NCBI GenBank assembly: GCA_045655005.1
Contig: JAZOOJ010000019.1
Location: 102,335-166,334, forward strand
Reading direction: 5' to 3'
Source: Clostridia bacterium
GTDB lineage: Bacteria > Bacillota > Clostridia > Christensenellales > UBA1242
DNA length: 64,000 bases
The first letter of the stretch is position 1. The number at the start of each line of letters is the position of its first letter. Below, in pieces: positions 20,394 through 60,703 of this stretch. Under the pieces are notes generated by a model that did no database searches, was not told the origin of the DNA, and saw only the letters and a list, made by a program, of their open reading frames with translations. A program made the translations under genes and the position numbers.

Positions 20394-20496
20394 TTTAATT
20401 TTCTCCTTTTGTTGTAATATTTTATAGTTTACTATATTTGTGTACTTTTTGCAAGTGGGTATGGGTTGTTTTTTATAAAAATTATTCATTAAACTA

Positions 20497-31447: not shown

Positions 31448-31562
31448 CTTCATTCGCTCCTTTCTTTAATACATAGGAATTTTAACACATAAGTTTATTT
31501 ATTGCAAGTGTTTTTAAAAATTTTTTGTTTTATTTTATATAATGTTTGTAATAATTATATAT

Positions 31563-39069: not shown

Positions 39070-42000
39070 TTGATGTACAGTAGTTTTATGATGAAATTAA
39101 TGAATATTTTACCAATGGTAGCCAATAATGGTGCAGGACGTGCAAATGGTAGTGGCGGAAGTGGAAACTTTGCCGGTGGGTTTGCAAATGTTTTGGCTTG
39201 GCTTGGTAATTTATTGGTTGATATTGTAACAACAGTTTGGGGTTGGATAATCTCACTTTTGTACGGGGTTGTAAAACTTGTACTGAATGTTATGGATATT
39301 CTTCAATTCTTCGTAAATAAACTTGTAGGTATTGATATTTATAACAATCCAGACTGGTCGGACTTAGTAACTTTACAAGAAAGCGATTTGATTGTTAAAC
39401 TTATTACAAGCCCAACAGTGTTAAGGCTTTTTAGAGCGGTTTTAATTCTGGCTGGTGTGTTGCTTATAATCTTTTGCATTATCGCAATTGTAAAATCAAA
39501 CTTCAATTCCGCCATTGGTGCAGAAGAAGAAAAAGAAGGGCATGCTCAAAAGGTTTTGAAAAGAGCAGTTAAATCGATATTCTTCTGCTTCTTAACCCCA
39601 TTTTTATTGATTGTTGGTATTCTTGGTTCAAATGTAATTCTTGCAAGTATATGCAATGCAATCAATGGTGACAATAATTTATCTTTGGGCGGTATAATTT
39701 TTACAACATCAGCCTATGACGCAAACAAATATAGAGTTTATGCGAAGAATAGTCAGCGTGTTCCAATGTATTATAGTAACGCAACAAGAATTATCAATAT
39801 GGGTGATTATCGTGAAGATGCAGATATGAGAAACTTGTTCTACTATATGGCAAAAGGCGAAGTCTATATGGAAGGAATCACCGAGGCAACGATTGCAAAG
39901 CGTGAGGCAGGTGAGTATAACGATTGGTATTCAGACATAATCACGATGGATAAAAATAGTTATATGTATAACCCGGTTCCAGTTAGGGGTATTACAAACG
40001 GAATTGCCGGATCTAGTGACAGCGACAATGTTTCAATTAGTGGTAACAAGTTAGCTTTCTCAATCGGAAATGTCTTTGATGAAGATGCTGTTGGAATGAG
40101 TACTGTTGCAGCTGCATTTGAAAGCGATTTCCAAGAATGGTATTCAGAATATTTCCAAAGCACACCTTTAAACGATTTTGGCGTAAGCAGTGATATAAAT
40201 AAAAAAATCCACGGATTTGGCAACTCTGCTTCAAACTGGAATTGGAATTGGCAAATTGATACAATGTCTATGGACTTCTCATCAACATACTATGTTTCGG
40301 CAGACAATCTTTACTTTAACAGCACAGGTGCTTATGTTGATATACTTGATAATACAGAAGCTTATTCACAGTATGAAACATTTGCAACAACTCCTCTTGA
40401 ATATTATGTTATGGCAGATGTATTAGATTTTGCTATTGAATATAATTTAGAATTGTTTTATGTAAATGCTGATAATGCATACATTCAATGGGAAAACATT
40501 CCAATCACTGATGACGAAGAAGATAATGTTGATGTTTCAACTTATTGCAGAGAATATGTGATATTTAGATATTATGAGGACGGAAATCCAAAATATTATA
40601 CCTATTACGGGACGGTTGATGAAGCTGTAACGGCAGGTGTAATAGACAGGCAGATTGTAAGGGAAAATATTACTTATACATTAAAATCAAATAATCACGA
40701 ATTAGATCTTTTATCTACCGATGCATTCTATGTTAGTTATTATGACGGAACAAACAGACTTTATTGGTCAGAAGATGGCGAAACTCGTGAACGTGACGGC
40801 TCAACTTATATCGTTTGTTACAAGAACTCAGACACGGGATATTTTGTTCCAATTACACAAGAAACAACAAAATTTAAATCAGACTTTTTAACCGAAGAAT
40901 ATGACGGGCCAGTTGTTGCAAGAGGTATTTTTGCAAAAACATCGGTTATACCACAAGCGACTCCTCAACCAACAGCGATTCGTGAGCAATTTGTTGATGA
41001 AAATGGGAATGAGGTTGCAATAGTTGAAAACAATGATGCATTAAGTTTGAAGGTTGTAAATTACACACAAGGCAATCCTATTTCAAATCAAACACTTTCC
41101 AATTTTATAGGTCATATCGATGATGAAGGCAATGGGATTAAAGGGAATTTAAGTGTTGAAGATGGCAATACGACTAATAATGGCATTTTAAATAATTCGC
41201 TTAACTATTTGTATATTGGTGAAGGAATTTTTCCAAATTTATACATAAATAGCAATGTCAAAAATTATAAAATATTTGAAGCAGACTCAGCAAAATATGT
41301 ATCTTTCTATGACAGTAATGGTTATGTAATGCCTTATGGCGGAGAACCGGTCGAGCAAGCAGATGGAAGTATGGCAACAAATGTTGAAACAGCTATGGAG
41401 ATAATTCCTGACGAATCTAACGAAAATGTATTTTTATACTACATTTATGGAAAAGGCGGGGCTTATCAGCCAATTGTAAGTTATAAAAGTCCAAATGCTA
41501 ATGATATTGATGAATTGCTTGAGGATTATAAGAAGTCTATTAATAATGTTGACGATATTATATTACTTGACGAATTGATAATTATTCAATATAAAGCACA
41601 GTTGTTGACATTTAAACCAAAGGGTGGAGAGGATAGCGAAAAACTTTCGATGCTTGTAGGAGCACAAGCGGTTGGTATTTCACAAAATGGTAGTCCGTTT
41701 AAAAAGGATGGAAATTTTGAACTTGCTTATACTTATGGCTCAGGCATTGCACAACAACAAAAAGCCGCAGAGCGTGATCCAGATAACCCAGAGGGCGAGC
41801 CTGGTGAACAATATGTTGTAGTAAATCGTTATGCAAACAATGCTGATGCTGGCGGATATATGATTGACTATGTTGAATCTCATACAAATTTTGATGTGGA
41901 TATGCATGGTTCAAAAATTGTAAATCTTTTCATAAAAAATGGTTCGGTTTATTATGCAAATGGAAGTAATAGATTTTTAAATCTTGATGATAACATCAAA

Positions 42001-45000
42001 AATTATTACAACTATGCATTAGATTTTGAACCAATAAGTACTGAAATGGTTGCAAATATTTTCTATGAGGTTGTTAAAGAGGAAAGTTCAATTGGTGGTC
42101 TTGGTGGTTATTACAAGAGCAAATTTGAAGAACTTGTGTTAAGTGTTGATGGACAAAATCCTCAGGCTAGAGTAGCCGCGGATACATTAACTCCTCAAGG
42201 CTGGTATACTTATTTCACAGGAGCTGGAAGTGGAATTCTTGACGAAGCCAAGTCGGCGGTTTATGCAATGCTTTACGGACAAGAGTTTTTGATTGGTATG
42301 GCATCGTCAATTCAACCTTTACAAGCTAAATTCTTTGGATATGTTCAAGATAAAACTAATTTAGATAATGTTGTACTTTCATTTTACGATAACAACAACA
42401 GAGAAACAGCAAGTGCAGTTCAAGAGAACGTGAAGATTTCTGAAATCAATAGTCCTTACGATGCTGACACAAAATGCGGCGCAAGAAGTGCAATTGTTGA
42501 AATTCCAATTACTGTTGTTTTGAAAAATGATGCTAGTGCCAATGTTGAAGCTGTGTTTGTTAATTCAACATCAGCAAATGGATACAGCGCAGATTTTACG
42601 ACATATACATATACCTTATCATTTACTGTTAATTACATTCAATGTGCAGGTTATGCTTTTGGTGGTGCAATCTCAAACATTCAATTAATTGCACCAGAAC
42701 TAATTGGAAACAATATATTTATTCAAATCAAAAATGGTTCGGTATACTGCCCAAGTTTAAGAAGCTATGTTCTTGGACTTGACGGAATGAAAGAAATTGC
42801 TAATACAGTATTAGCAAATAACGAAGTGTGGAGCCAAGATGTAATTAACTCACAATATCTTTTTGATTTAACAACCATTTCTAATTACAGCAATGTGTAT
42901 ATTTATTTTGAAAGAGGCGAAATTTTATTTGATTTGCCGATTGATGCAACTCTTCATATGAAAGGTGCTAATCTTTTCACCGACATCGTATTTAGATTTG
43001 CAATTGATTTTGTAAGAACTTATAATGTAAATGTTATATATAGGCTTGAAGGCGGAAGTTGTTTATTAAATTACAACTTTAATAAAAACACAGCGATTGA
43101 AATTGGAAACTTATACGAAATGAGATTTATTAATCCAATTATATTGTTGTTCTCAACAGCCATTGTCTTTGGAATGTTGTGGAATATGGTTTGGAACTTG
43201 ATAACAAGAATATATGAAATAGGAATCAGATTTATTATTTTACCAGCAGTGTTGTCTGTTGACGTGCTGTCTGATGGTAAATTTAAAGCATGGAAAGATG
43301 CGGTCGTTGAAAAAGTACTGTCAGCGTATTCGGTACTCATAATGCTGAATTTATACTTTGCGTTGATTCCATCTATTGGTGAAATCACTGAGGGACTTAT
43401 TTCTTGGGATGAACTTCCAACCACATTTACTGGACTATTTAGCGCAATAGGTATAAATAAAGGTGGTGCAATGATTTCAAATATTGGTGCAAATCTTGGT
43501 GGATTTGCTAGTGGTATTATAACAAGTTTGATTGCAGAACTTAAAGAAACTACAATCATTACAGTTACTGGTTGGCTTAATAAGTTAATATTTATGATGT
43601 TTTTCTTAGTATTGACCACACTTGTTAAACAAGGTCCAAAGATTCTTGGTAAGTTTATTGGAACAGATGCAGATATCGCAGACGAAAGTACAAAGAATAA
43701 AGTAGGCGAAATAAAGAAAAAGGCTGCGGAAGTAGGAGAAACTGGCGGAAAAATTATAAAAGGCGGTACAAATCTTGCTACTGGCGTTGGTAAAAAGTTG
43801 TTCAGCGGTGCAAGTAATTTGTTGCTTTCGCGTTATATGAGCATTTTACCAGTTAATATGCAAAATATTGGTGAATATAAATTTTCGGGCGATACGGGTG
43901 ATTTACGAGGAAGTTCTTTTGCAAGTGGTTCGCCAATGACTACAAGGACAACGTCCATTCGTGGAAGCAGATATGGTGCAGGTGGTCGTGCTATTGTACC
44001 GGATACTGGTGTTAGTGGTGGTTCAACAGACGAAGAAACAAGAGAAACAACAACTTCAACCCGTGGTGGAGGTGCTATGGATATGGCACATATGGATTCT
44101 GTTGTTGAAACCGATACTCCAATCGAAAGAGGTGGCGGTGGTTCATCGGTTGTCTATGTTTCAGCGGGTGGCGATGCTGGCGCTGGCGGAAGTTATGACG
44201 AAATTGAAGAACCAATTAAGATTGAAGACAATTTAAGTTCTGTTCAATTGCTTGAAAGGTCTGAAAACTTAATGAATGAAGCTATGGATAAACGCGGTCA
44301 AGCAGATGCGTTGCGTGAAATGGCAAAAGATAAATTTACAAAAACTGATGAAACAGAAATGTATAATTATGAAATAGAGCTTAAGATGACGGAAGAGAAA
44401 CTTGCTAGGGCTCAACAACGTCGTGGAGAAGCTTATGACTTGAAACGTGGTGCACAAGCTAGGGGTGAAAGAACTGACCAAGTTGAAGTTGTTGATGAAA
44501 AGGGCAACAAAAAGATTGTTAACGCTCAACAAGACTGGCAAGATGCAACTGATGAAGTTCATTCTATTCAAGCTGAAATCGAAGCACTTAAGTCTGTTAT
44601 TCACGAATACGAGGCTAAGAAGCAAGCACAAGCTGACTTCTTATCTGAAGCTGAAAGACTTGAAAATGATGCTAAGGTAGACGACCAACACGCTGCTGAA
44701 TACTTTGAAGCCGCACAAGATAAAGAATTACTTGAAGCTGCAATCACTAAAGAAGAATTTGAAAAATACAAGAGTGAAGCAGCTGCTCAATTTGCACAAA
44801 AAGGTGACATTGATCAGTACGGAGCTAAATTTGACGAAAAACTTGCAACAAAAGCCGATGATGAAGTATTGGAAGCTGTTTGGGATTATGTTGATGAGTT
44901 AGAGGGCTCTATTGAACAAGAACTTGGAACAACGCTTCAAAGTGCGTACGAGGCTGTTGATACTAAGGCTGATGCAGACCTTACACAAAAGGCTCTTGAC

Positions 45001-47814: not shown

Positions 47815-47846
47815 TTGTAAACAATTCGATTTATAACCTTGAAAGT

Positions 47847-47873
47847 GGGGTGGGAAGGTTAAACTCCCGCCCC
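47847..47873 (+). other. GC-rich stem-loop in the gap between the giant gene and the VirB4 gene
   Basis: ggggtggga / tcccgcccc (9 bp, one G-T pair) with a 9-nt loop and no T-run. An overlapping pairing aacctt (47835-47840) / aaggtt (47855-47860) also exists. Confidence 0.4.
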
Positions 47874-47934
47874 GCTGGAAAAGGTATAAAAATATAAGTG
47901 GCGACTTTAAACGCATTTGAACAAGGAGAAAATT

Positions 47935-50835
47935 ATGGCAAGATTAATTCCAAGAAAGACCAAGGTCAAAATTCAGTTTTATAAGAATTTTTCACTGACA
48001 GACGTTTTGGTGGCTTTATGTTGTGTGGCAGTCGTTGCCTTAGCTGCTTTAAGTGGTCTTCAATTCAGACTTATTTTGGCGGCAGGGTTAGGACTTGTAT
48101 CGCTAAGCTTATTTGTTAGCGTTGCACCAGAAACAAGGTTGTATCAATCGATTGGACATACGTGTAGATTTTTGTTTGCTAATAAGGTCTATACAAAAAC
48201 TGCGCCTAAGGTGTCTCAAAATGTAAAGCTTATTACACCTTATGAAGGGTTTGTTGATTTTTCTATGCACGATGGCTCGGGCGATCCTGACAGCATAAGT
48301 TTTATTGATTATGGTTCATATCTTGCAGCGGTTGTAGAAATTAGACCAGTTCAATTCTATATGCTTAGCGAACAACGTCAGAACCAATTTATTACTGCTG
48401 TAGATAATGCACTTAAAACTATTGCCGGAGACCAAATTGTTTCTATTGTCAAAACTGAAAAACCTTTGGTTTTGGACTCGTATTTAGAGCACGAAAAGAA
48501 AAAAGCCGAAGATTTGCTTAAATCTGCGGAGCGTGGCGACGTAACTGAAAATGAACTTGACCCAAGACTTGATATTATTGAGAGTCGTATGGTCGGTTTA
48601 GAAAACTGCAACGTTGGGTCACCTAACACAATAATGAAAGAACACTATTATTTCATTATTTATGGGACTGGTAAAGAATCTTTAAAAAGTTCTGCAAATC
48701 TTGTTGCAACAACTCTTGAAGGTGGAACAAACAACTCTCTTCAATGTAAAGTTTTAAACAAAGAAGAACTTGCAATATTCTTAAAGAGTACCTATACAGA
48801 TGATTTCGATGAAAGAGAAATCTATAAACTTAAACCAGAAGAATATATGAATTGGCTTTTACCTGACAAGGTTACTTTTAATACAAGAGGTTTTGTAATT
48901 GATGGCGTTGCTCAATCATCACTTATTATCGCAGACTATCCTCTTGCTGCAAGAAACGCTTGGGGTAATTATTTCTTTAATATACCCGGTTCTAAAGTTA
49001 TCGTAAAGTTTAAGAGTGTTGGTATTGATGAAGCCGAAAGACGAATAGACAACGCCGTTATGGAAATGGAAGCTCAATATATGAACGGTGGTAAATCTTC
49101 TAAGATGCTTCAATTACAAACACACATTCAAACATTAAACGAACTTTTAGTTTCGCTTAAAAATGGTAACGAAGCGTTTTTTGATACCTCAATTGCAATT
49201 ATTTGTAAACAAGATATCAAGAAAAATGTTAAAACTATGCTTCGTCGTGGCGGTTTCAAATTTAATGATTTGTTCTGCTCACAAATTGATGGTTTTATTG
49301 CTGGTAACATCGGTAGAAAGATGGTTTTAGGTCAATACGACCGTGGTATTAACTCATCTTCACTTGCGGCGATATTCCCATTTATTTCAGACGCTGTTCA
49401 AGATGAAAAGGGATTTTTCCTTGGATATAACTCAGAACCTCTATTCCTAGATTTCTTTAAACGTGATAAAGAAAGAATTAATAGTAATATGGTTATCATC
49501 GGTAAGTCTGGTTCTGGTAAATCATATGCAACGAAGGGTATTCTTTCTCACCTTGCATCAGATAACAGTAAAATTTACGTACTTGACCCGGAAAAAGAGT
49601 ATGACAACCTTGTACACAATCTTGGTGGAAAACTTATTGACGTAGGTTCTGCGAAGATGGGACGACTAAATCCATTCCAAGTATTTACAACGCTTGATGA
49701 TGAAGGTGAAGAAGGACAGAACACTTCGCTTGCAACTCACTTACAGTTCTTGGAACAATTCTTTAAAATTATTCTTGATGGTATTACAACCGACGCGCTT
49801 GAAATTTTGAACGACTGCGTAAAACAAGTTTATGATAAATTTAATATTAATGCTAATACTGAAATTCAAAACCTGGACGCTACACAGTTCCCAATTTTCC
49901 AAGACGTTTACAACTTTATCGTTCGTAAATTTAACGAAACAAAAGATGATTTCTATAAAAATAACTTACGTGTCATCATAACCTACTTAAATAAGTTCGT
50001 TTCTGGTGGACGTAACAGTATGCTTTGGAATGGATATTCGTCAATTACAGCAGAAGAAAACTTCATTGACTTTAACTTCCAATCATTGCTTGCTAACAAA
50101 AACGGTGATATCGCCAACGCACAAATGCTTTTGGTACTTCGTTGGATTGATAACGAAATCATTAAAAACAAAGACTATAACGCTAAATATAACACTAAGC
50201 GTAAAGTAGTCGTTGCTATCGATGAAGCGCACGTATTCATCGACCCTAAAAAAGACGTCGCACTTGACTTTATGTACAACCTTGCTAAGCGTATTCGTAA
50301 GTATGAGGGAATGCAGATTATTATTACACAGAACTTGAAAGACTTCGTTGGTACGCCGTCTATTGCTCGTAAATCTACGGCTATTATCAACGCTTCACAA
50401 TATTCATTCATATTCTCTCTTGCTCCTCACGATATTAATGACTTGGTTGAACTTTATGAAAAGGCTGGTCGAATTAACGAAGCCGAACAAGAAAGTATTG
50501 TTTCGAGCCCAAGAGGTCGTGCGTTCTTGATTACTGGACCATACAGCAGAACAACTTGTGATGTCGCTCTTTCTGATTTGGTTATTGCTACATTTGAAAA
50601 ACCAGATATTAAAGAATATAAGCGTCAACAAGAAGAACTTGCAACGAAGGCTTCTCAGCCAGTAGAAGGCGTTGTAGAAGAGGCGATTGAAGAAGAACCT
50701 TATGAACCAGTTCAAGAATATGGTGCAGAAGAAGAAATTGCAGAAGAAGAATTTGATGAAGAAATCCCAAGCGAACCAGTTGAGGTTGACCCAATTGCAA
50801 GTTTGCCAAAACCTGTAAACCGTAGCGAAAATTAA
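47935..50835 (+). CDS. VirB4-family T4SS ATPase with fused N-terminal PrgI/VirB3-like membrane domain
   Basis: Start at ATG 47935 (AAGGAG 6 nt upstream). N-terminus IPRKTKVKIQFYKNFSLTDVLV plus two TMs (PrgI-like). Walker A IIGKSGSGKSYATKG followed by VLDPEKEY. Walker B VVVAIDEAHVFID. Acidic C-terminal tail. Confidence 0.85.
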   Translation: MARLIPRKTKVKIQFYKNFSLTDVLVALCCVAVVALAALSGLQFRLILAAGLGLVSLSLFVSVAPETRLYQSIGHTCRFLFANKVYTKTAPKVSQNVKLITPYEGFVDFSMHDGSGDPDSISFIDYGSYLAAVVEIRPVQFYMLSEQRQNQFITAVDNALKTIAGDQIVSIVKTEKPLVLDSYLEHEKKKAEDLLKSAERGDVTENELDPRLDIIESRMVGLENCNVGSPNTIMKEHYYFIIYGTGKESLKSSANLVATTLEGGTNNSLQCKVLNKEELAIFLKSTYTDDFDEREIYKLKPEEYMNWLLPDKVTFNTRGFVIDGVAQSSLIIADYPLAARNAWGNYFFNIPGSKVIVKFKSVGIDEAERRIDNAVMEMEAQYMNGGKSSKMLQLQTHIQTLNELLVSLKNGNEAFFDTSIAIICKQDIKKNVKTMLRRGGFKFNDLFCSQIDGFIAGNIGRKMVLGQYDRGINSSSLAAIFPFISDAVQDEKGFFLGYNSEPLFLDFFKRDKERINSNMVIIGKSGSGKSYATKGILSHLASDNSKIYVLDPEKEYDNLVHNLGGKLIDVGSAKMGRLNPFQVFTTLDDEGEEGQNTSLATHLQFLEQFFKIILDGITTDALEILNDCVKQVYDKFNINANTEIQNLDATQFPIFQDVYNFIVRKFNETKDDFYKNNLRVIITYLNKFVSGGRNSMLWNGYSSITAEENFIDFNFQSLLANKNGDIANAQMLLVLRWIDNEIIKNKDYNAKYNTKRKVVVAIDEAHVFIDPKKDVALDFMYNLAKRIRKYEGMQIIITQNLKDFVGTPSIARKSTAIINASQYSFIFSLAPHDINDLVELYEKAGRINEAEQESIVSSPRGRAFLITGPYSRTTCDVALSDLVIATFEKPDIKEYKRQQEELATKASQPVEGVVEEAIEEEPYEPVQEYGAEEEIAEEEFDEEIPSEPVEVDPIASLPKPVNRSEN

Positions 50836-50890
50836 AAAGCTAAAATTAAAACTAGTTAAATAGAAAATAAACTAGAAGGACAAAAGATAT

Positions 50891-53800
50891 ATGCAAATGA
50901 TGGTAACATTTATGAAAAATATCATTGGAGTAGGTGCACAAAAAATTGGTGCATCTACTCTTCACGCCCTTCATTTGCAGAATGTTTTGCCTGTTCTAGC
51001 ATCTACTAGTGCTGAGGGAACGGTTGATGTTGGTGGATTGTTAAGTCCAATAACATCGCTTATTGAAGGTGTTTGGGGATTAATTATTTCGTGGTTTTAC
51101 TTTATTTCTAAATTTGTTTTCCAAATAGTAGATTTAATTCAATATTTGCTTTATAAACTCGCTGGAATTAATTTATCGTCAGAAATGACATTTGACCTAC
51201 CAATTTACAGAGTTTTACTTTCTGAAACAATATTAAAGATATTTATTTCGTTGTTTGTTATTGGATTAATATTGCTAATTGCACTCACAATAATTTCTAT
51301 TGTAAAGTCAGAGTACTCTATTGCTGTCGGTCTTGAAACCGATCCTAAAAAAGTCAAAGGTGCTTCAAGTAAGGTCGTAAAATCTACACTTACAGCATCG
51401 ATTTTGATGTTTGTTGTTCCATTCTTAGTTATTGTCTCATTGGCGTTTGGATCGGTCTTTTTGACAAGTATTAATTCGCTTTTAAACCCAAACGGCACAA
51501 GTGGTACAACTCTTGGTGGGCAGGTGTTTGTTGCGTCTGCACAGAAAGCAAACAAGTATAGAATTTACGCAGACAACAATCAAAGAATTCCTATTCTTTA
51601 TAATTTTTATGACCCAATGACAAATGGCACTGCTCAAAACTATACCGAAGAAGAACTTGAAAGGGAATATGCAGATTGGGCGAATGGAAGTAAATATTAT
51701 TCAGACCAAAGGTCAAAAAATTACAATAGTTTCAGCAGTACTTTGGTATATAAAAATAATAGACTTTATAATAAAGCAGACACATTCGGCGATTATGAAC
51801 AATGGGTGTCGACACCTGAGCAATATTATATAATGGCTGATTTTATTGATTATGCCGTTAAAAATAATCTTGAATTTTATATCAAAGACTCATCAGACAA
51901 CAATATTGATTGGACAAATATGTCAAGCGAAATAAAGCTATCTGATGGTGTTTATGACCCAGCAACGGGAACCTTTAAACTTTCTTATAAAGATATCTCC
52001 AATGTTAATAAGTATGAAGATGTTTATAATATGGTTTTAGATGCTAATGAATTTATAGCATCAAGCCCTATTGCAGATACAACAAAGACTATTGCTGAAC
52101 TTTTGTCTATTGCGCTAAATGAAGAAGATATAGAAGATACAAAATCAAGAATGTTTAGAATGCTTGAAAGGGTGGAAGGTAGTACCAACATTGTAAAATG
52201 GAAAACCGAGTATATAGCTTATGGACAAGACACCTTTTCAATTTACCAATTAACAAAAAGATATTTTAATCCTTTAACTGGACGAGTTGAAGCACGTGCA
52301 ACGGTACCGGTGGCAAGAAAGCAATCGGCTGGATCATATTACATTTTAAAACAAAATGGAAATGGGAATTATGAATATACCAATCAAGTTATTGAATATA
52401 ACAATGATGGGAAGTTGTACCGTGACCAATTGGAACCGGTTTATGTTTATGGTAATTGGCCTGAAAAACTTTATAACGATTTAAAAGTTATTTACGATGA
52501 TATAAATATTGATAACTATATTAATTACGACAATTGGGCAGATATGCTTGGTGAGTATTATACAGTTGGTGAAAACATCTCATCTGACCAAGTTGTAACT
52601 TTTGCAACTACTTTAATTCATCCTCTTGGACTGATTATGTCAGAATTGTTTTTGGGTGTGACTTTTGAATCGGATAATCAAATAACAGATATTTCGTTCA
52701 CTTCGCAATATTTGGAAGAAACAATACAAGCATTATGTTTTGCTGTTGGCGGTGAGGAAAAATATTGGCAATTAAAATGCGAAATTGAATCATTTGTTGA
52801 TATGTTCAATGGGTTGTTTACTCCAATTGTTGAGGAATTGCAAAAAATTGAAGGTTTTGACCTTTATGATGAAGACGAATATTCAGTTCAAGGATACGTT
52901 TATAAAGCATATCTTGCAAGCATTATGCTTTCAGATAGTGCTAATGATTATTTTGAAACATTGGGCTATGAAATCTTAAACCTTAACAACCTTGCTGCGG
53001 TGATTTATAACAATACTACAAATTATGTTTACGATTCAAATGGCGATATAGTATATAAAGTGGTTTATAGCACCGATGAAGATGGGAATAAAATTCAAAA
53101 AACTTACACATCAACCAAAGAAAATGGTTTTGGTAATGTTACAGGTAAATATGTTTACAACCAAAGTGGGGAGTTGGTTGTAGTATGTGATAATAAAGGT
53201 GTTGCAAGCGAAACTTCTCAATATGTTCCGATGGGCGGTATATTTAAAGATAACGTCAAGTTTGACGAAGAAAATGGAATTTATAGAATTAAATATGACA
53301 AGAAATTTTATTCTTATGACGAATATAATCAATATTTAATAAAAGAGAAAGAGAAGCATCCAGATGCTAATCACCCAGCTTGGGAAGCACTTTTCTATTC
53401 TTATTTTCAAACGTACTATGAATTCAAGTATGACCACGAAAAAACTTTTGATGCAAAAGTGGAAGATGAAATAAAAACATATTCAGTTGTTTGTAATGGA
53501 CTTGGACAAATTGTTTTTGAGTATAGAAATGGAGTGTTTTATCCTGTTGACGAAGATTTATGTACTGATGATGGAATATACTTTATTCCTAAAGATAGTT
53601 CAAATATTGTTGTAGATGGTGTTAATGGTTTAAGCTATAAAGAAGCGGTGATAGATGGCGACAATAAGCGTTATGTTGATATTGCGGTAACCCAAAAGGT
53701 AACAAATAAAGATGGATCGGTATCAATAGTAGTTGATGAACGTTTCGAGAGAGCAAAAATTAGGCTAAATGTATATGACCATTTAATAGGCACTAATCCT

Positions 53801-56800
53801 AATTCAAAAATAGGGTTAACTGAAGCAGAACAGATTATTCTTTCGGTAGATGATGATAAGCAAGATGATATTGTTTATGATTTTGCATTGGACTATTCTT
53901 TGAAAAAGCAAAGTCCTAGCGATTATATGGTGGTTAATAATTCGTTAATCATTAATTCTCAATTGAATATCATAGCGCAAGATTTTTATCAATATGAGAA
54001 AAAATATTCTCCAATGGAACAATATGATTATGCTATTTATCAAAACTTACCAGAAAACAGCAAGAAAATTTTAGATGATGCAATTGCTTATATGCATAAG
54101 ATTGCAGAAAAAGACCCTAATCAAAAAAATCAAACATTTTTACCATATCTTGAAAGTTATCAACAAGGGTTTATAGCGTGTGGTTCGGGCAATGAGTTTA
54201 TAATTCAAATGGAATATATTTTCTCTGCTCCTATGGTGTCTGCTTTAATTGCTGAAAATTATAAAAGTGAACTAAGTGAAAATATTGAATATTTACAAAA
54301 AAACGCTAATAAATCTACAAAGATTAAATATCAAAAGAAATTTGAGGCTGTTTGTAGTTACTACAAGTACAAAATCATTAAATCAATTCAAGAATATATG
54401 TCTTATCGGATTTCAAGCGGATATAATGTAGTTGTTAATAGTCAGCAATTTACATTACATCAAGCGATGTCATCAACACAGTTTATGGAAATTGTGTTTG
54501 GTAATCAGTTGACTTATGAATCGCTTATTGGACAACTTGAAGTTGGTTCGTTATATAACGATTTAACAAAGTTTAATCAAGGCGCAATGTTTTTACTTTC
54601 AAGTTATATTCGTCAAGACCTTTCTGAACTTAATCAAATTATTGAAAAATTAAAATTATACAGATTTTTAAATGGTGCAATTTACAACATTTTAGCATAT
54701 CAAGTTGATTTTAATTTAACTGCTCGTGAACTTGAAATAATTAATACATTCTATGAAGTTCAAACAGGTGATGCCTTAAATGTGAATTCTAAAATGATGT
54801 TTAATTATTTAAAACTTGCAACAATGAATGAGCTTGGAAAGCCTGCGTCATATAATTCATTGATGTATGACTCAATATTGGCTGAACTTAGCAAAGTTGC
54901 TGATAATCTTGGATATATTTTAGATGAATTTATGGCTGGCTCGTCAGATATTCACTCAACTGCTGGTGATATTACTAATCTTGACGCAACAAGAATGCTT
55001 GCAAGATATATAAAGAATATTAAAAGTGATATTGAATTGTCATACGTTGACCCAGATTATACTGGTATTATTGACCCATCTGGACTTTGGGGTGAACTTA
55101 GACAATTTTTGAAAGATTTTGGACGCTTGTGTTTTGACCTTGAAACTAAATCAAATTTTGGCTCGTTAACTGTTGGTAAAAGCGACTCGGAAACAATTGT
55201 TGGTGCAACTTCAAGTTATGTGAATGAGCTTCTTGATATGCTTAACGGTATGCTTGCAGAAGTTGATTTTGGAAGCACAGGAACATCAATTACTAAAATT
55301 AATAACTTTAGTGATTTAATTGCAGAGTACTTCAATGAAGAAAATGAACAATTTGAATATCGACCAGTTGATGGCGAAACTAAATATGAGAACCTAACAA
55401 GCGAAGCAAAATATTATATTGCAATACTTTGTGATTATTTTGAGAAGGCAACTGCTGAATATAACTCTATAATCAACAATGCAAAAGATGCTTATAATAT
55501 GGTTGTGAAGTTTAAAACTGGCAGATATACAATTCAACCGAATTCGTTAATCTTCACCAAATATTTAAAAGAATACATTGAATACTTTAAATATAATGTA
55601 GATTCATCGGATACAAGTCTTCAAAATGATTTTGCAAAGAATTATATCTTTGACGGATATTATTTAGAGGTCAATCCAGATTTAGAGTTTGGCAACGCCG
55701 GATTAAGTATGGCGGATAGGCTTAATTATTACTTCAAATATATTGAGTCATTTGATAATTTTCAATTCGCAAACAGTGGTAATTATTATTCAGATTTGAC
55801 GGATTTGCAACAAAAGGTCGTTGATGATTGTGTTAAATACTATCTAGCGATATATGAAGATGCACAGGATCAATTAGAAGAAAAGTTTGCAGTTGCGAAT
55901 GAAAGTTTTGCAAAGCTAACGCTTTTCATATTTGGCGATGAGCATGGAAATTTTTCGACCATTAGCGAATCAGGTGTTGACTTGATAATTGCGAACAATA
56001 TTGACATTTTAAATCTTTATAATGTACTTGATTTTATGGGACTTGAATTTGATATAAATAAAAATCTTAGAGATTACAGAATTGATGCTATAAATAGTTT
56101 AGTTGATTTCCGTGAATATAGCGGTGAAAGTTCGGCGTCTATTCAAAGTAGATTCCTATCTCTTTTATATCTTGCTTGCTCAGATTATACCGAAAATAAT
56201 ATTGGTACTTCATATATCGGATATGATGATAACTCTAAACAGATTATTTTAACTCTTGCTGGGATTCAAGACCAAGCAGATGAAAAACTTGTAAATCTTG
56301 AATATGAAGGGAATTATTCAAATTCGGTTGCTGATGAAAAGTATGGAAGTATATTTATTATTTGTACATATAACGCAGAAACAGAGTTATACGAACCATT
56401 TATCTTTGCGTCTGCTCCAAATAAACACAATATTCCATATTCAAATTATTATCAATCAATTAATGGTCAAGTTACATATTATCCAATTATTGCAAAAGGT
56501 ATTTTTGATAGAAATGGAAATCCTACAGCAATAAGAGAGGTTAATGGGTATATTGAATTTTATCGTGATGAAGTGTACAGATTTTCTTTCAACAAAATGG
56601 CGATGGACATCTATGCTGTGGCAGAAGAAGAAATTGCCGAGAACCACGGAATTGTTGGGAATATTGTAAGTACAATTAAGCAGACAATAAGTAGATTTTT
56701 AATAGCAGATACAGTTTCAGATATGATTTCATACATTGATGTTGACTTAGCACCTGAAACATATTGTGGAACATTTACCAAGTATGAATATCACTTAGAA

Positions 56801-57823
56801 GGTGGTTATTGCAATCTTAACTATATGTTCTTTAATTCTACCGGTATCGACGTTAAACATTTGTATGATATATCCCAACTTAATATAATTATTCTTGTTA
56901 TTGCTTCGGTGGTAATTCTTAAAGCTATGTGGAATATCTTGTATGGCGTCGTGGGTTCAATCTATCAAATTGGAATATTGTTTGCAATTTCTCCAACTGT
57001 AATTGGAATCTATCCAATGAAGAGCGATGCATTCAAAAGTTGGGTCAAAGCCTTTGTTAAACAATTCTTTATAATGTATGGCTATATCGTAGCATTAAAT
57101 TCTTACTTTATTATATTGTCACTAATAGACCAAATGGGGCCATTGATTGACAAATTGTCGCCTGGAAGTGAAAGAATTTTACAAGATACATTTATCTTTA
57201 ATGGTATTGATTTGTTCTCAATTGTATCATTCTTAATTACAACAACATTACTTTTAACTGCTACAACAATGCTTAGCACTATGAGTGAAGAGTTCTCAAT
57301 CAATCTGTTTGGTGGAGATAATGCAGAATCGGCTGGTTCTAAGGCTAAAAAGCAAATGGAATCTAACCTTAATGAAGCAGAGTACTTTACAAGTGGTTAT
57401 ATGTTAAAAGATAGCGTTGCAAATGAGCTTCAACAAGGTGTTAAAACTTGGGCACCATTACTCCCAGATATTTCTAATTATGTACAAGACAAGTATCATA
57501 ATAAGCACAATGAAAAGCTTGCAGAGAAATATAAAAACGACTTGCTTGCACAAGGTGTTAGTGCTACGAAGGCAGAAGAAGCTAAGAATGCTTATAAGGC
57601 TACACTTGAAGCAAGACAAAAAGCTAAGAAAGATCACATTAAAGCAGAAGAACAAAGAAGAGAGAATAGGCAAGCGTCACTTAAATCTGGCGGTGAGACT
57701 TGGGCTTCAAAGAAGAAAGACGACAAAGTTTCTTGTGATCAATGTGGAGCAAAATTCCCTAAGAGTTATGTCAAAGGGGCTACTCATTGTCCAATCTGCA
57801 GACGAAAAGCTAAGTTTAAATAA
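50891..57823 (+). CDS. Giant polytopic membrane protein (2310 aa), paralog 2, with a ~1800-aa extracytoplasmic loop and C-terminal zinc ribbon
   Basis: Three N-terminal TMs, conserved blocks ANKYRIYADNNQRIPILY, YYIMADFIDYAVKNN, AKGIFDRNGNPTAIRE, a TM bundle at nt ~56880-57285, and a tail ending CDQC-x14-CPIC. Confidence 0.6.
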   Translation: MQMMVTFMKNIIGVGAQKIGASTLHALHLQNVLPVLASTSAEGTVDVGGLLSPITSLIEGVWGLIISWFYFISKFVFQIVDLIQYLLYKLAGINLSSEMTFDLPIYRVLLSETILKIFISLFVIGLILLIALTIISIVKSEYSIAVGLETDPKKVKGASSKVVKSTLTASILMFVVPFLVIVSLAFGSVFLTSINSLLNPNGTSGTTLGGQVFVASAQKANKYRIYADNNQRIPILYNFYDPMTNGTAQNYTEEELEREYADWANGSKYYSDQRSKNYNSFSSTLVYKNNRLYNKADTFGDYEQWVSTPEQYYIMADFIDYAVKNNLEFYIKDSSDNNIDWTNMSSEIKLSDGVYDPATGTFKLSYKDISNVNKYEDVYNMVLDANEFIASSPIADTTKTIAELLSIALNEEDIEDTKSRMFRMLERVEGSTNIVKWKTEYIAYGQDTFSIYQLTKRYFNPLTGRVEARATVPVARKQSAGSYYILKQNGNGNYEYTNQVIEYNNDGKLYRDQLEPVYVYGNWPEKLYNDLKVIYDDINIDNYINYDNWADMLGEYYTVGENISSDQVVTFATTLIHPLGLIMSELFLGVTFESDNQITDISFTSQYLEETIQALCFAVGGEEKYWQLKCEIESFVDMFNGLFTPIVEELQKIEGFDLYDEDEYSVQGYVYKAYLASIMLSDSANDYFETLGYEILNLNNLAAVIYNNTTNYVYDSNGDIVYKVVYSTDEDGNKIQKTYTSTKENGFGNVTGKYVYNQSGELVVVCDNKGVASETSQYVPMGGIFKDNVKFDEENGIYRIKYDKKFYSYDEYNQYLIKEKEKHPDANHPAWEALFYSYFQTYYEFKYDHEKTFDAKVEDEIKTYSVVCNGLGQIVFEYRNGVFYPVDEDLCTDDGIYFIPKDSSNIVVDGVNGLSYKEAVIDGDNKRYVDIAVTQKVTNKDGSVSIVVDERFERAKIRLNVYDHLIGTNPNSKIGLTEAEQIILSVDDDKQDDIVYDFALDYSLKKQSPSDYMVVNNSLIINSQLNIIAQDFYQYEKKYSPMEQYDYAIYQNLPENSKKILDDAIAYMHKIAEKDPNQKNQTFLPYLESYQQGFIACGSGNEFIIQMEYIFSAPMVSALIAENYKSELSENIEYLQKNANKSTKIKYQKKFEAVCSYYKYKIIKSIQEYMSYRISSGYNVVVNSQQFTLHQAMSSTQFMEIVFGNQLTYESLIGQLEVGSLYNDLTKFNQGAMFLLSSYIRQDLSELNQIIEKLKLYRFLNGAIYNILAYQVDFNLTARELEIINTFYEVQTGDALNVNSKMMFNYLKLATMNELGKPASYNSLMYDSILAELSKVADNLGYILDEFMAGSSDIHSTAGDITNLDATRMLARYIKNIKSDIELSYVDPDYTGIIDPSGLWGELRQFLKDFGRLCFDLETKSNFGSLTVGKSDSETIVGATSSYVNELLDMLNGMLAEVDFGSTGTSITKINNFSDLIAEYFNEENEQFEYRPVDGETKYENLTSEAKYYIAILCDYFEKATAEYNSIINNAKDAYNMVVKFKTGRYTIQPNSLIFTKYLKEYIEYFKYNVDSSDTSLQNDFAKNYIFDGYYLEVNPDLEFGNAGLSMADRLNYYFKYIESFDNFQFANSGNYYSDLTDLQQKVVDDCVKYYLAIYEDAQDQLEEKFAVANESFAKLTLFIFGDEHGNFSTISESGVDLIIANNIDILNLYNVLDFMGLEFDINKNLRDYRIDAINSLVDFREYSGESSASIQSRFLSLLYLACSDYTENNIGTSYIGYDDNSKQIILTLAGIQDQADEKLVNLEYEGNYSNSVADEKYGSIFIICTYNAETELYEPFIFASAPNKHNIPYSNYYQSINGQVTYYPIIAKGIFDRNGNPTAIREVNGYIEFYRDEVYRFSFNKMAMDIYAVAEEEIAENHGIVGNIVSTIKQTISRFLIADTVSDMISYIDVDLAPETYCGTFTKYEYHLEGGYCNLNYMFFNSTGIDVKHLYDISQLNIIILVIASVVILKAMWNILYGVVGSIYQIGILFAISPTVIGIYPMKSDAFKSWVKAFVKQFFIMYGYIVALNSYFIILSLIDQMGPLIDKLSPGSERILQDTFIFNGIDLFSIVSFLITTTLLLTATTMLSTMSEEFSINLFGGDNAESAGSKAKKQMESNLNEAEYFTSGYMLKDSVANELQQGVKTWAPLLPDISNYVQDKYHNKHNEKLAEKYKNDLLAQGVSATKAEEAKNAYKATLEARQKAKKDHIKAEEQRRENRQASLKSGGETWASKKKDDKVSCDQCGAKFPKSYVKGATHCPICRRKAKFK

Positions 57824-57853
57824 TTTAATTTTTAATAATTTATTGGTGAGTCT

Positions 57854-60703
57854 ATGAAATTGATAAGTTTTATGAACAACTTAATATTTAAATTCAACAG
57901 CCAGCACTTGCTTAAAAATGGTGCTGGCAAGGCTCACAGCGACTTGTTTAGTTTATCGAGCGAGAGTGTTGGATTTTTTCAAACAATTTTGAATTCTATT
58001 GCTGATACTTTTGCTGATGTTACAAATTTTTTACTTAGAATACTTTACAGACTTGTTTATTTTATCGTAATGCTTGCTTTGAACATTATGGACTTTTTAA
58101 TGGTTATTGTAACAGAGCTTTCGGGTAAAGCACAATCTTTTGACCTTTCAACGGCGAATTCGAATCTTGAAAGTTCAGATATAATTTTTAAATTCTTCTT
58201 TAATTCGCTTACGATGAAGATTTTAAAAAGAGTATTTATTTACTCAATACTTTTACTTATCATCATTTCAATTATTGCAATTGTCAAAAATGAATGGGCA
58301 AGGGCTACTGACGAAAAAGCAAGAGATGCAAAGCAGATTATTGTAAAAAGTTTGAAAAGTTTATTTATGATGTTTGTAATTCCATTTTTCTGTATCGTCG
58401 GAATTGTCTTTTCTAATGTACTACTGACCTCTGCATTGAATGCAATAAGTGGGGATAGAGATAATTTCAGTGTTGGCTCGATTATTTTTATGTCGGGGAC
58501 ATACAATGCAAACTGGTATCGGGTGTATGCAGATAATAATGATAAAATCCCAATATTGTTTGATTTTAATGGTGGATTTTATAACGCCGACAATGGGACG
58601 GCAGATAATGGAAATTATTTTGATGTAGAAGACGAGATTAATGCATTAAAAAACAATAGTTACCTAACAAGTGGATATAGTACCTATTCAATGTTTCAAA
58701 AGCAGGCGTATTTTACATTTAATGAAGTTCCTGAAAATAGTTCTTATTATGCGTTCTATGATGGCGACTTTATTAAAACTAATCGAATAGAGTATTATGT
58801 AATGGCGGACTTTGTTGACTATGCTATGGAAACCGGACAAGAGTATTATATAAAGAATGTCGAAGATGTTTATAACACGGCCTATGATGCAGTTGTTGCA
58901 TCAGAAAGAGCGGGGGCTTGTTTGTATCCATATATTGCAGAAGGCGAAGAATCTCCTGATGATCCATACTATAAATATTTTGAAGAAATCTTTAATAACA
59001 TTTCGGTTTATAGTGATGAAGTTGATGATGATGGCAAGAATGTACAACTTCCAGTATATAGCGCGGGAGAAGATGGTCAAATAGGTTTAAATTACGACCG
59101 AAAAGATTCTGAGTATTTCTCCTTTAAAGTTTATTATGATGGTACACTTTTAAATGCTTGCGGTGATGTCGAGGTTGAAAGCGAAGAAGTCGCAGTAGAT
59201 GGGGAAATCAAAGAAGTTTATAAAGATAAGGCAATTGAATATCAAGCACTTTCGGGTGCAGATGACGAAGCTTATGGTGCTAAATATGTTTATTGTTATA
59301 AAGTTTCGGTTCCAATAAGCGAGGACGGAAGCCAAAAGACTACTATTTATGTGCCTATCTTGCAACATTCAAGCAATAATACATTCTTTAATTTTGAAAG
59401 TGAGTATTTGGCAGATGTCACAATTGGTCGACCTTATGAATCAATGTTTTTGGCAAGAGGGGCGTTTAATGTATCGGGCTATCCAACAGCGATAAAAGAG
59501 GCCGGTTCAGACATTGTGTTTTATCGTCACGATGCCGAACAAAAAAGTTATTTTAAGGTAAAACCGCAGTCAAGTTATACCGAAACTGATGATAATGGAA
59601 ATGAAACGGTAATTGAGGCTGAGGGAGACTTCTTTTCAAAGGTTCTTGGGTTTGACCAATCAAAGGTTCAAATGGGGCTTGACATAAAAGGTAAGTCAAT
59701 GCCAGTATTTTCAAAGTCTGTTTTAAATATAACAACATTAAACAAAGGTCAATTTAAACTTAATTACAGTTTTGTGAATACACGACTTACTCTTGGAAAT
59801 GTTTATGATTTATTGAATATTAACTTTGTAATTTTGGCAATTGCTTGTTTGCAATTAATGAGTACATTGTTCTATATCATATTTGCACTAATGCGAAGGC
59901 TTCTTGAACTGACGGTATTTTGGTTTACCTATCCTGCGTGGCTGGTTAAATTTCCACTTGAATCAACAGATAGTGTGCTGGAAACCAATGGTATGTGGAG
60001 AGCAAACTTTATTGACAGAGTGCTTGCAGTTTATACAACTTATATCGGTTTAGCGTTTTTCTTCACATTGGTGCCAATTGTGGTGGAAATAGACTTTGCC
60101 GGCTCGATTATTAATTCGATTAACTCAAGCAATTTGTATTGGTTTAACTATTTGCCACCGACTTTGATTTCTTGGGTTATCAGAACGATGTTTATCTTAG
60201 TGTTATTTACTATGATGTCAAGCATTAATCAAATCATTGATGATTTTGCAAGTGGCGGAAGGCTTTCAGGATTTGGTGCTGATCAAGGTAAAGAAGTATT
60301 TAAAAATATTAAAGGGAATGTTAAAGGAGGGTTTGAAACATTTAGCATTAGGGCTAATCTAAAGAATGCAAAGGAAACAATTAAAAACACGGCTCACGAT
60401 GCGACAATGTTTATTCCTGGTGTTGGATTCTTAGATACAGGTGTCACTGCTGTCAGAAATAAGGTGAACGATGTTCAAGCGAAGCGTGCTATTGACGCAC
60501 TTGTTTCTTCTGACCATACAAGAGGTGCAACTGATGCAAGCGTTACAACAGACATTGATTCGATGAAGAGAGTTATGGATGGATATGATGTGACTAGTCG
60601 AGGTAAAACAACACACGTTGACGGCTTTAAAGATAAATCTAAAAAGATTGAAGAAAGTGCAGATAAGCGTGGAAGACTTCATATCAAACCTCCAAAGAAA
60701 TAA
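57854..60703 (+). CDS. Polytopic membrane protein (949 aa), paralog 3, near-minimal core of the giant family
   Basis: Same N-terminal three-TM module. Blocks ANWYRVYADNNDKIPILF, YYVMADFVDYAMETGQEYYIK, ARGAFNVSGYPTAIKE. TM bundle at nt ~59815-60225 and a short basic tail. Confidence 0.6.
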   Translation: MKLISFMNNLIFKFNSQHLLKNGAGKAHSDLFSLSSESVGFFQTILNSIADTFADVTNFLLRILYRLVYFIVMLALNIMDFLMVIVTELSGKAQSFDLSTANSNLESSDIIFKFFFNSLTMKILKRVFIYSILLLIIISIIAIVKNEWARATDEKARDAKQIIVKSLKSLFMMFVIPFFCIVGIVFSNVLLTSALNAISGDRDNFSVGSIIFMSGTYNANWYRVYADNNDKIPILFDFNGGFYNADNGTADNGNYFDVEDEINALKNNSYLTSGYSTYSMFQKQAYFTFNEVPENSSYYAFYDGDFIKTNRIEYYVMADFVDYAMETGQEYYIKNVEDVYNTAYDAVVASERAGACLYPYIAEGEESPDDPYYKYFEEIFNNISVYSDEVDDDGKNVQLPVYSAGEDGQIGLNYDRKDSEYFSFKVYYDGTLLNACGDVEVESEEVAVDGEIKEVYKDKAIEYQALSGADDEAYGAKYVYCYKVSVPISEDGSQKTTIYVPILQHSSNNTFFNFESEYLADVTIGRPYESMFLARGAFNVSGYPTAIKEAGSDIVFYRHDAEQKSYFKVKPQSSYTETDDNGNETVIEAEGDFFSKVLGFDQSKVQMGLDIKGKSMPVFSKSVLNITTLNKGQFKLNYSFVNTRLTLGNVYDLLNINFVILAIACLQLMSTLFYIIFALMRRLLELTVFWFTYPAWLVKFPLESTDSVLETNGMWRANFIDRVLAVYTTYIGLAFFFTLVPIVVEIDFAGSIINSINSSNLYWFNYLPPTLISWVIRTMFILVLFTMMSSINQIIDDFASGGRLSGFGADQGKEVFKNIKGNVKGGFETFSIRANLKNAKETIKNTAHDATMFIPGVGFLDTGVTAVRNKVNDVQAKRAIDALVSSDHTRGATDASVTTDIDSMKRVMDGYDVTSRGKTTHVDGFKDKSKKIEESADKRGRLHIKPPKK

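Follow-up and report, generated by a model that had tools for sequence, protein, structure and literature searches.

The window analysed here, a stretch of 64,000 nucleotides from a Clostridia bacterium, carries three giant open reading frames (ORFs), all on the plus strand: G1 (39070..47814, 2914 aa, read from a TTG start), G2 (50891..57823, 2310 aa) and G3 (57854..60703, 949 aa). They lie among the genes of a type IV secretion system (T4SS) and are almost certainly T4SS subunits of the CDS16 family, known from the integrative and conjugative elements (ICEs) of mycoplasmas. As judged from their sequences, the core of the three proteins is homologous from end to end with the NCBIfam families MMCAP2_0566 and Mbov_0396, i.e., with CDS16. 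Whereas the CDS16 core is a polytopic protein of ~300 aa, a predicted extracellular module of 386-1729 aa is found here inside the loop between the third and fourth transmembrane helices (TM3-TM4), together with added tails of 150-1475 aa that are predicted to be cytoplasmic.

The original prediction held that the 2914-, 2310- and 949-aa proteins share four collinear blocks, and every motif that it quoted was located at the residue and nucleotide it had given. In G1, G2 and G3, respectively, block i starts at aa 218, 220 and 219 (nt 39721, 51548 and 58508), block ii (YYVMADF) at aa 445, 312 and 314 (nt 40402, 51824 and 58793), block iii (PTAIRE) at aa 617-639, 1868 and 534 (nt 40918, 56492 and 59453), and block iv (LNYxF) at aa 1333, 1976 and 636. 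The paralogy of the three proteins was likewise borne out by pairwise BLASTP alignment of both ends. The N-terminal three-helix block (aa 39-235 in G1, aa 53-239 in G2, and aa 41-240 in G3, nt 57974-58573) aligns over 235-287 aa with 32-37% identity (E = 2e-25 to 7e-36), and the C-terminal membrane block (aa 1325-1525, nt 43042-43644 in G1; aa 1968-2133, nt 56792-57289 in G2; aa 626-798, nt 59729-60247 in G3) with E = 3e-12 to 2e-22. Block ii is also detected (E = 9e-8), and block iii is weak when taken alone (E = 0.002-0.02), yet collinear. On the other hand, the C-terminal bundle, described earlier as containing four to five TM helices, is better seen as three long ones, the first of ~35-41 residues, with one additional Gly-rich hydrophobic segment in G1.

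The paralogs differ in the sites where this common frame has been enlarged, with insert sizes and loop lengths that agree with those anticipated. In G2, ~1536 aa separate blocks ii and iii, most of which correspond to a subfamily-specific insert of ~1490 aa (aa 340-1830, nt 51908-56380). In G1, ~694 aa are found between blocks iii and iv and ~135 extra aa between blocks i and ii, while a tail of 1389 aa extends beyond the last hydrophobic helix. According to hydropathy, the loops joining helices 3 and 4 span ~1150 aa in G1 (~aa 200-1350, nt 39667-43119, predicted extracellular), ~1790 aa in G2 (~aa 199-1989, nt 51485-56857) and ~450 aa in G3, where the loop forms the whole ectodomain (~aa 200-650, nt 58451-59803). 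The tails are also different: that of G1 (~1390 aa, nt 43645-47811) is charged, of low complexity and predicted to be cytoplasmic; that of G2 is a K-rich extension of ~177 aa ending in a CxxC...CxxC Zn-ribbon motif (nt 57734-57799); and that of G3 is a basic stretch of ~150 aa. Beyond the four blocks, BLASTP revealed no modules in common among the loops and two surface proteins of 966 and 1228 aa encoded in the same window.

Some features of G1 deserve separate mention. Its listed TTG start (39070-39120) is probably placed too far upstream, since the conserved N-termini of G2 and G3, when compared with it, point to Met7 or Met8 (MMKLMNIL...) as the likely true start. The exact 2914-aa sequence is absent from the protein collection, where the G2 and G3 sequences are present. 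The region of the tail (44000-48000) reaches a GC content of up to 0.40 and an AT skew of ~0.27, versus ~0.33 and ~0 elsewhere, a shift explained by the Glu/Lys/Ala/Gln-rich composition of the tail, which contains the motif PVTPVVEQSNDG twice (aa 2394 and 2451).

The identity of the core was established with two NCBIfam models: NF045848 (MMCAP2_0566 family conjugal transfer protein, 322 positions, curated cut-off of 90 bits) and NF045889 (Mbov_0396 family ICE element transmembrane protein, 306 positions, curated cut-off of 70 bits). No Pfam model matched G1, G2 or G3 at E ≤ 0.1, and all three proteins match both NCBIfam models. For NF045848, the E-values are 6e-27 (G1), 1.5e-20 (G2) and 1.5e-13 (G3), and the N-terminal block falls on positions ~6-161 of the model and the C-terminal block on ~172-314. 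In G1, the match consists of two parts, aa 53-228 and the C-terminal block. The scores reach 94.7 bits for G1, over the cut-off, and 73.8 and 50.7 bits for G2 and G3, both under it; with NF045889 they are 64.6, 47.7 and 33.9 bits, all under the cut-off. When the N- and C-terminal blocks were located in 173 family members, the loops deleted and 30 of the resulting cores sampled, all 30 matched NF045848 (best 9.6e-38) and NF045889 (best 1.6e-22). The loop-deleted core of G3, the only one detailed, aligned to NF045848 as one continuous stretch over positions 8-298 of 322 (E = 7e-16).

Two natural short proteins, P0173 (464 aa) and P0174 (387 aa), provide a link between the giants and the CDS16 families. 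They came from a word-indexed search with a profile of the hydrophobic core, in which the candidate list was swamped and just these two proteins were returned. Both match the profile of the giant cores (E = 1.6e-22) and align collinearly with them, with blocks i and iv recognisable in reduced form, and both are full-length members of NF045848 (~1e-43) and NF045889 over the two cut-offs. A tblastn search with P0174 against 72,556 plasmids gave no match. The existence of natural members of 387-464 aa corrects the view of the 949-aa protein as the minimal core. Two other proteins considered as extra paralogs, Mbov_0399 (CDS19) and a Spiroplasma protein of 1136 aa, were discarded after giving no match to the hidden Markov model of the core.

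The genetic context of the giants is that of a T4SS, as previously proposed, with G1-G3 encoded between VirB2-like pilin genes, VirB4 and VirD4. The order in the locus, of 28 kb, is u966 (minus strand), VirD4 (minus strand), pilin, pilin, G1, VirB4, G2 and G3. The VirD4-type coupling protein (35767..37764, minus strand, 665 aa, two N-terminal TM helices) matches Pfam T4SS-DNA_transf (E = 6e-46) and TraG-D_C (E = 1.6e-32) as well as NCBIfam conju_CD1115 over its cut-off (E = 3e-84). The two VirB2-like, pilin-like proteins, of 112 aa (37990..38328, plus strand) and 118 aa (38420..38776, plus strand), match PF18895 T4SS_pilin (E = 7.6e-5 and 7.9e-9, the latter over the cut-off) and the NF045849 Mbov_0395 pilin-like family (E = 9e-8 and 2e-9), and the second of them shows a basic loop between two hydrophobic helices. 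The VirB4-type ATPase (47917..50835, plus strand, 972 aa, two N-terminal TM helices) matches NF045975 VirB4_plasma, the Mbov_0397 family, with E = 6e-175 and 583.5 bits versus a cut-off of 590 bits, together with Pfam P-loop_TraG and DUF87. G1 thus has a pilin-like gene of the Mbov_0395 type before it and a VirB4 gene of the Mbov_0397 type after it. The match to the mycoplasma-type VirB4 model includes the TM helices of VirB4 (aa 23-72; window 47917-48140), which may represent a VirB3-like anchor built into the protein; a separate gene for VirB3 was not recognised. Finally, u966 (32435..35335, minus strand) encodes the 966-aa surface protein, which begins with a signal-like helix, continues as a Tyr/Asn-rich body and ends in a TM anchor followed by a basic stub. 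It has no family match, and its position would suggest that it is part of the system. In two related loci (L007 and L008), a minus-strand ORF of 700-830 aa, of no family and comparable with u966 in size, adjoins VirD4.

Integrase, transposase (including DDE) and VirB8 genes were not found either in the 28-kb locus or in the remaining window. The flanks are made of housekeeping genes, with comEC, holA, rpsT and gpr at one end of the locus and MerR, GNAT and fba at the opposite end, and the base composition is even across the locus and the same as in the flanks. A Mur ligase and Ddl (D-Ala-D-Ala ligase) are encoded at the 5' end of the window, indicating that the organism makes peptidoglycan.

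Relatives of the giants are numerous. A word-indexed search with G3 returned 29 of them, labelled at most as a "Clostridia bacterium" metagenome-assembled genome (MAG), whereas an exhaustive profile search gave 1892 representatives (50% clustering, E ≤ 1e-3), with lengths from 360 to 3852 aa and 390 of them at E ≤ 1e-30; these ~1,900 representative relatives have no Pfam family. The four blocks were mapped on the top 171 matches of the profile search plus G1-G3, and the lengths of loops and tails fall into three classes. The G3-like class shows a loop of 257-490 aa and a minimal ectodomain. The G1-like class has loops of 640-1540 aa, block ii shifted to around residue 400-560 and tails mostly of 850-2470 aa. 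The G2-like class combines loops of 1180-2025 aa with block ii around residue 300, block iii immediately before the C-terminal bundle and tails of 110-280 aa; the ~1490-aa insert was found only in G2-like proteins, of 1767-2335 aa, none of them with a Pfam domain. These classes imply that G1, G2 and G3 stand for three old conserved subfamilies, which very probably reside in a chromosomally fixed locus.

In this regard, all readable related loci (L001-L011, L014, L018 and L019, from at least nine MAGs plus metagenome contigs) keep the order VirD4 (minus strand), pilin, pilin, G1-like, VirB4, G2-like and G3-like, usually followed by fba, GAPDH or tRNA-synthetase genes, and the expected co-occurrence with VirB4 was seen as direct adjacency in every locus covering the upstream side. 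VirB4 is 72-88% identical to the window copy and fba in the same loci 54-84%, with VirB4 ahead of fba in every locus allowing both comparisons, while G2 and G3 show identities of 30-59% and 33-58%, respectively. The same neighbours, a VirB4 conserved at least as well as the aldolase and giants that diverge fast fit a machine that is inherited vertically under strong constraint and whose exposed parts evolve fast, and not a recently mobile element. A similar contrast occurs inside G3, whose orthologs keep ~70% identity to it in blocks i and ii, the most conserved parts of the protein, compared with 44-52% in the TM helices, 21% in residues 341-465 and 23% in the tail; invariant columns are present across 28 orthologs. 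As additional features of the relatives, the two pilin genes are immediately preceded by an SSB gene in L008 (7433-8869) and L018 (1-426), which is not so in the window, and a gene for a polysaccharide (peptidoglycan-type) deacetylase, absent at this position of the window, is also found upstream of the pilins in L008. The former hints at a single-stranded DNA cargo and the latter at local wall modification.

Structure models give some insight into the architecture of the core and its expansion. The AlphaFold2 (AF2) model of P0174, built from a mixed alignment, shows 3+3 long helices with a predicted local distance difference test (pLDDT) of 80-88 and a disordered connecting loop at residues 129-195, which is precisely the site of the inserts in the giants. 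Its fourth helix has 41 residues, and the equivalent in the G3 model spans residues 658-691. Counts of K/R over 167 cores revealed that the TM2-TM3 loop and both sides of the distal half of the fourth helix are K/R-rich, pointing to a cytoplasmic location, whereas the large loops are acidic and Tyr/Asn-rich and the tails basic and K-rich. A topology with the N-terminus inside, the loop outside and the tail inside can be inferred from these features. The ectodomain in the AF2 model of G3 (pLDDT 80-94) includes two β-hairpins of ~25 residues and has no significant structural neighbour (Foldseek against PDB and BFVD, none at E ≤ 0.001). Altogether, the picture is one of nested insertions, in which a conserved membrane-proximal scaffold would have come first and variable distal modules later, at paralog-specific points.

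The relation of these proteins to VirB6/TrbL is less direct. Each of them has 6-7 hydrophobic helices and is encoded with VirB4 and pilin genes; the TrbL/VirB6 Pfam models gave no match to G1-G3 at E ≤ 0.1, and sequence-profile searches of the PDB with full-family and core-only alignments gave chance matches only. At the level of fold, a Foldseek search of the PDB with the P0174 model placed chains of the R388 stalk at ranks 1, 2, 4 and 20 (E = 0.38-3.8), with 8rtd_L reaching a probability of 0.82 and a TM-score of 0.42 (E = 0.42), and DotA at rank 43. The highest-probability matches of the G3 model were again R388 stalk chains in the PDB (8rtd_I and 7o3v_G) and, in BFVD, an entry named "TrbL/VirB6" (probability 0.80). 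The R388 chains of 260-268 residues can be assigned to TrwI/VirB6 because TrwJ/VirB5 has only 226 aa, and 7o3v_G is long enough for TrwI; no VirB5 homologue was recognised in the locus. Among mycoplasma proteins, CDS15, CDS16 and CDS17 are each required for ICEA transfer, which is abolished by transposon insertions in their genes (PMC6030558), and a review of 2025 rates CDS16 as "likely the VirB6-like component" (PMC12857230). The original assignment to VirB6/TrbL therefore stands as far as the T4SS membership and the homology of the core with CDS16 are concerned, but not as a consistent TrbL match or a significant fold match (E ~0.4). Direct VirB6/TrbL membership is unproven, and G1-G3 probably work like VirB6.

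With these data, G1, G2 and G3 can be proposed as three ancient paralogs of a polytopic channel subunit, the presumed equivalent of VirB6, in a T4SS of the mycoplasma-ICE type. The ancestral unit would have been a ~300-aa bundle of 3+3 long hydrophobic helices with an outside loop of 50-70 aa. In the Clostridia lineage, a conserved extracellular module with blocks ii and iii would have been inserted in this loop, blocks i and iv bordering the insertion site, a state that G3 would still represent. Subfamily inserts would have been added later inside the module, in G2 at one site, from block ii to block iii, and in G1 at two, from block i to block ii and from block iii to block iv, while the tails, charged and of ~1400 aa in G1, with a Zn-ribbon in G2 and short and basic in G3, would stay in the cytoplasm. 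The three proteins would co-assemble above VirB4 with VirD4 and the two VirB2-like pilins, with the conserved membrane-proximal extracellular blocks acting as an assembly or channel interface and the large, fast-evolving distal parts reaching through and beyond the peptidoglycan for wall crossing and target contact. The whole would be a chromosomal machine passed on by vertical inheritance, and not an element that was mobile in recent times. A DNA cargo is hinted at by the VirD4 of the window and by the SSB gene beside the pilins in two relatives (L008 and L018), and the fixed chromosomal position without a relaxase found is reminiscent of the non-conjugative system of Patescibacteria. As a composite, this explanation is considered reasonably probable. 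That the ectodomains form a wall-crossing or contact structure is a more tentative part of it, on which we would not insist, although the short loops of wall-less Mollicutes versus the long ones of walled Clostridia fit a wall-spanning role; by extension, the giants might conceivably replace VirB7/9/10 across the wall. A bolder version, in which a widespread group of uncultured, walled gut Clostridia has a T4SS of the mycoplasma/Patescibacteria kind in its core genome, and the giants co-assemble through their conserved extracellular blocks into a hetero-oligomeric tube or stalk that needs neither a wall hydrolase nor VirB8 to cross the peptidoglycan, replaces the outer-membrane complex of diderms and serves with the pilins a host- or partner-directed, non-ICE function, is unlikely to hold in full.

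Several observations weigh against the channel-subunit proposal. G2 and G3 score under the curated NCBI cut-offs, and TrbL_4 (PF19597) was matched by a single ortholog out of 28 (E = 0.002) and a single core out of 30 (E = 1e-5). Neither did an hhalign comparison of the family with the single TrwI sequence give any signal, nor did Foldseek return a match at E ≤ 0.001, the TrwI/VirB6 matches at E ~0.4 being non-significant. The wall-spanning idea draws on few short-loop examples, namely a Mollicute protein, which is confirmed, and two proteins from metagenomes. Relaxase and wall hydrolase genes were not found in the 28-kb locus or the remaining window. The ectodomain has no fold match, so a conduit and an adhesin cannot be distinguished on this basis, and the assembly, stoichiometry and extracellular location of the loops are deduced from sequence. 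Moreover, as seen for R388, hydrophobic helices of VirB6 may lie outside the membrane once the machine is assembled (PMC12857230), and a topology derived in this way may not hold.

The most serious competing explanations keep the same family but change the role. In one of them, the core is the same channel subunit and the giant loops act chiefly as adhesins or determinants of specificity, for target-cell recognition, mating-pair stabilisation or surface exclusion, diversified by partners, phages or host immunity. The distal loop segments, and G2 and G3 as a whole, evolve much faster than VirB4, the loops are Tyr/Asn-rich as in many surface proteins, and the weak fold matches of the G3 ectodomain are jelly-roll, carbohydrate-binding-module or phage-tail-like; the TraG protein of the F plasmid, in which a VirB6-like domain is joined to a mating-pair-stabilisation and exclusion domain, offers a precedent. 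However, blocks i and ii of the ectodomain are better conserved than any other part of the protein, which argues for a structural role of at least the base, u966 already supplies the locus with a separate anchored surface protein, and no adhesin family was matched in Pfam or NCBIfam. This explanation, which is compatible with the channel-subunit proposal and not exclusive of it, looks rather unlikely as the main role. A similarly low probability is given to the locus being the transfer module of an ICE, or a domesticated remnant of one, where the giants would have the same role as CDS16 in the conjugation or chromosomal transfer of mycoplasmas, with nothing new. The presence of VirD4, the SSB gene beside the pilins in the divergent relatives L008 and L018, and the fact that the nearest named relatives are ICE genes all speak in its favour, and mycoplasma ICEs are likewise described in the literature without a recognisable relaxase. 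It is countered by the lack of an integrase, DDE transposase or relaxase in the 28 kb of the locus or its flanks, by chromosomal neighbours that remain unchanged across genomes whose aldolases are down to 54% identical, by a VirB4 at least as conserved as a glycolytic enzyme and by a base composition equal to that of the flanks.

Two further alternatives are both highly improbable. An unrelated polytopic family (YhgE/Pip/EsaA, MMPL/RND or ABC permease) could have been placed by chance in a T4SS locus, but the likeness is a general one, of a few TM helices at each end and a big external loop. These families, named in the original prediction as possible contradictions, gave no match to G1-G3 among the Pfam and NCBIfam models (E ≤ 0.1), and the sets of 28 and 30 relatives yielded none even at E ≤ 10; with 30 of 30 cores matching the ICE CDS16 models and an invariant position between pilins and VirB4, the reading is effectively refuted. 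Neither are the giant ORFs likely to be decaying or mis-assembled sequence without function, a suspicion raised only by their unusual size and the low-complexity tail of G1, because they remain intact in a low-GC genome, each class has orthologs in many independent assemblies and invariant columns persist across 28 orthologs.

The family itself is already known, both in the NCBI annotation and, as CDS16, in the mycoplasma literature. No account was found in the literature of a loop-expanded, triplicated form of CDS16, and none of walled Clostridia with a mycoplasma-type T4SS that is fixed in the chromosome and includes VirB2-like pilins. How T4SSs of monoderms cross the wall and contact their targets, and the purpose of the "extended" VirB6 proteins, are largely unknown (PMC12857230). 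In this line, the locus offers a natural series on one 3+3-helix core, from a 50-aa loop in Mollicutes through a ~400-aa module in G3 to elaborations of 1100-1700 aa in G1 and G2, and the three large forms are kept in one operon, which makes the question of wall crossing accessible to structure prediction and cryo-electron tomography. It also extends to ordinary walled gut Firmicutes the range of VirB2-like monoderm pilins and of relaxase-less, chromosomally fixed T4SSs conserved like a housekeeping gene, both features being described for monoderms, in the literature consulted, in Patescibacteria only. The interest is chiefly for T4SS specialists, and the function is a predicted one.

Other observations were made in the neighbourhood of the locus and in distant systems. 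A minus-strand ORF of 1228 aa (window 20537-24223), whose product starts with a signal-like helix and ends in a TM anchor plus a basic stub, has the architecture of u966, with no family match and no BLASTP similarity to u966 or to the loops. In the Spiroplasma citri plasmid pSciBLHMB-2 (L017, 2104-5514), the 1136-aa gene directly upstream of VirB4 is not a CDS16 relative, and its product, with a signal peptide and a C-terminal TM anchor, is of u966-like design; these systems may thus include an accessory surface protein that is conserved. A stretch of 14 kb from Mesomycoplasma hyopneumoniae (NZ_LR214993.1; L016, 2358-12441) encodes a pilin-like protein, Mbov_0396, the Mbov_0397 VirB4 and Mbov_0399 between eno/serS/dprA and rpsT/aspS, with neither VirD4 nor a transposase, and has the look of either a minimal system or a remnant embedded in the chromosome; in the window, too, the locus is bordered by rpsT (31175-31453). 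Further upstream, the window encodes on the minus strand a 206-aa protein with an HEGRH (HExxH-like) motif (24373-24993), with no family above noise, which may be a small zincin-like protein, and a lysyl-tRNA synthetase of the class I type (18816-20489, PF01921, E = 3e-110), the less common form among bacteria. A BspA-type leucine-rich-repeat surface protein with Listeria-Bacteroides repeats (9739-11442, plus strand) and a nearby GH95 fucosidase-like gene (2540-4909) are consistent with a gut organism associated with the host mucosa.

Compared with known systems, the closest likeness is to CDS16 of the mycoplasma ICEs, given the homology across the whole 3+3-helix core and the common order of Mbov_0395-type pilin-like protein, CDS16 protein and Mbov_0397-type VirB4; the nearest plasmid-borne or annotated relatives of VirB4 come from Spiroplasma and Mycoplasma. 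The Mbov_0396 protein of M. hyopneumoniae (750 aa) joins a short-loop core to a basic tail of ~420 aa, so that such a tail can occur in this family as well. The differences are found in the TM3-TM4 loop, of ~50-70 aa there (as measured in M. hyopneumoniae, P0173 and P0174) and 386-1729 aa here, in the number of copies, one per element versus three paralogs per locus, and in the host, which is here a walled Clostridia with the locus outside any recognisable ICE. VirB6/TrbL proteins (VirB6 of A. tumefaciens; TrwI of R388, PDB 7O3V/8RTD) are also polytopic hydrophobic subunits encoded beside VirB4 and pilin genes, but no significant sequence or profile match links them to G1-G3, which are three to nine times larger, and VirB5, VirB7, VirB9 and VirB10 were not recognised in the Clostridia locus. 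The subunits of the MPF_FA/pLS20 type (TcpH, ConG and pLS20 gene 49, of 700-900 aa) belong as well to monoderm T4SSs and combine an N-terminal TM bundle with a large hydrophilic part. In them, however, all TM helices are N-terminal and followed by one domain, whereas here the hydrophilic part splits the bundle into 3+3, and their systems have VirB1 and VirB8 homologues and no pilins. Five of the 30 cores weakly match the pLS20 protein family NF045890, which is not the extended VirB6 one; a lead to pLS20 "gene 28" was dropped, this gene being an antiterminator unrelated to the name of the NCBIfam pLS20_p028 model.

The T4SS of Patescibacteria (Saccharibacteria) resembles the one described here in being monoderm and chromosomal, with PF18895-type pilins beside VirB4, usually no relaxase, often no VirB1 and a conservation like that of a core function (PMC12102498, PMC12857230). 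It belongs to another phylum and lifestyle, its essentiality has been shown, and its VirB6 is picked up by the standard VirB6 profile, with no triplication or giant size reported for it. Lastly, the Rvh systems of Rickettsiales carry extended VirB6 paralogs, one example mentioned in PMC7648143 being Anaplasma VirB6-4, with 4322 aa. Both cases present tandem enlarged VirB6-type paralogs in a chromosomal T4SS of non-conjugative appearance, and long, repetitive and charged C-terminal extensions as in G1. By this likeness of design, G1-G3 fit the architectural class of extended VirB6 proteins defined in PMC12857230, with a hydrophobic core, large hydrophilic domains and tandem paralogs. The Rvh system is nevertheless a diderm alphaproteobacterial P-type with VirB7-11, and its expansion is mainly C-terminal, whereas that of the Clostridia proteins is nested in the central outside loop.

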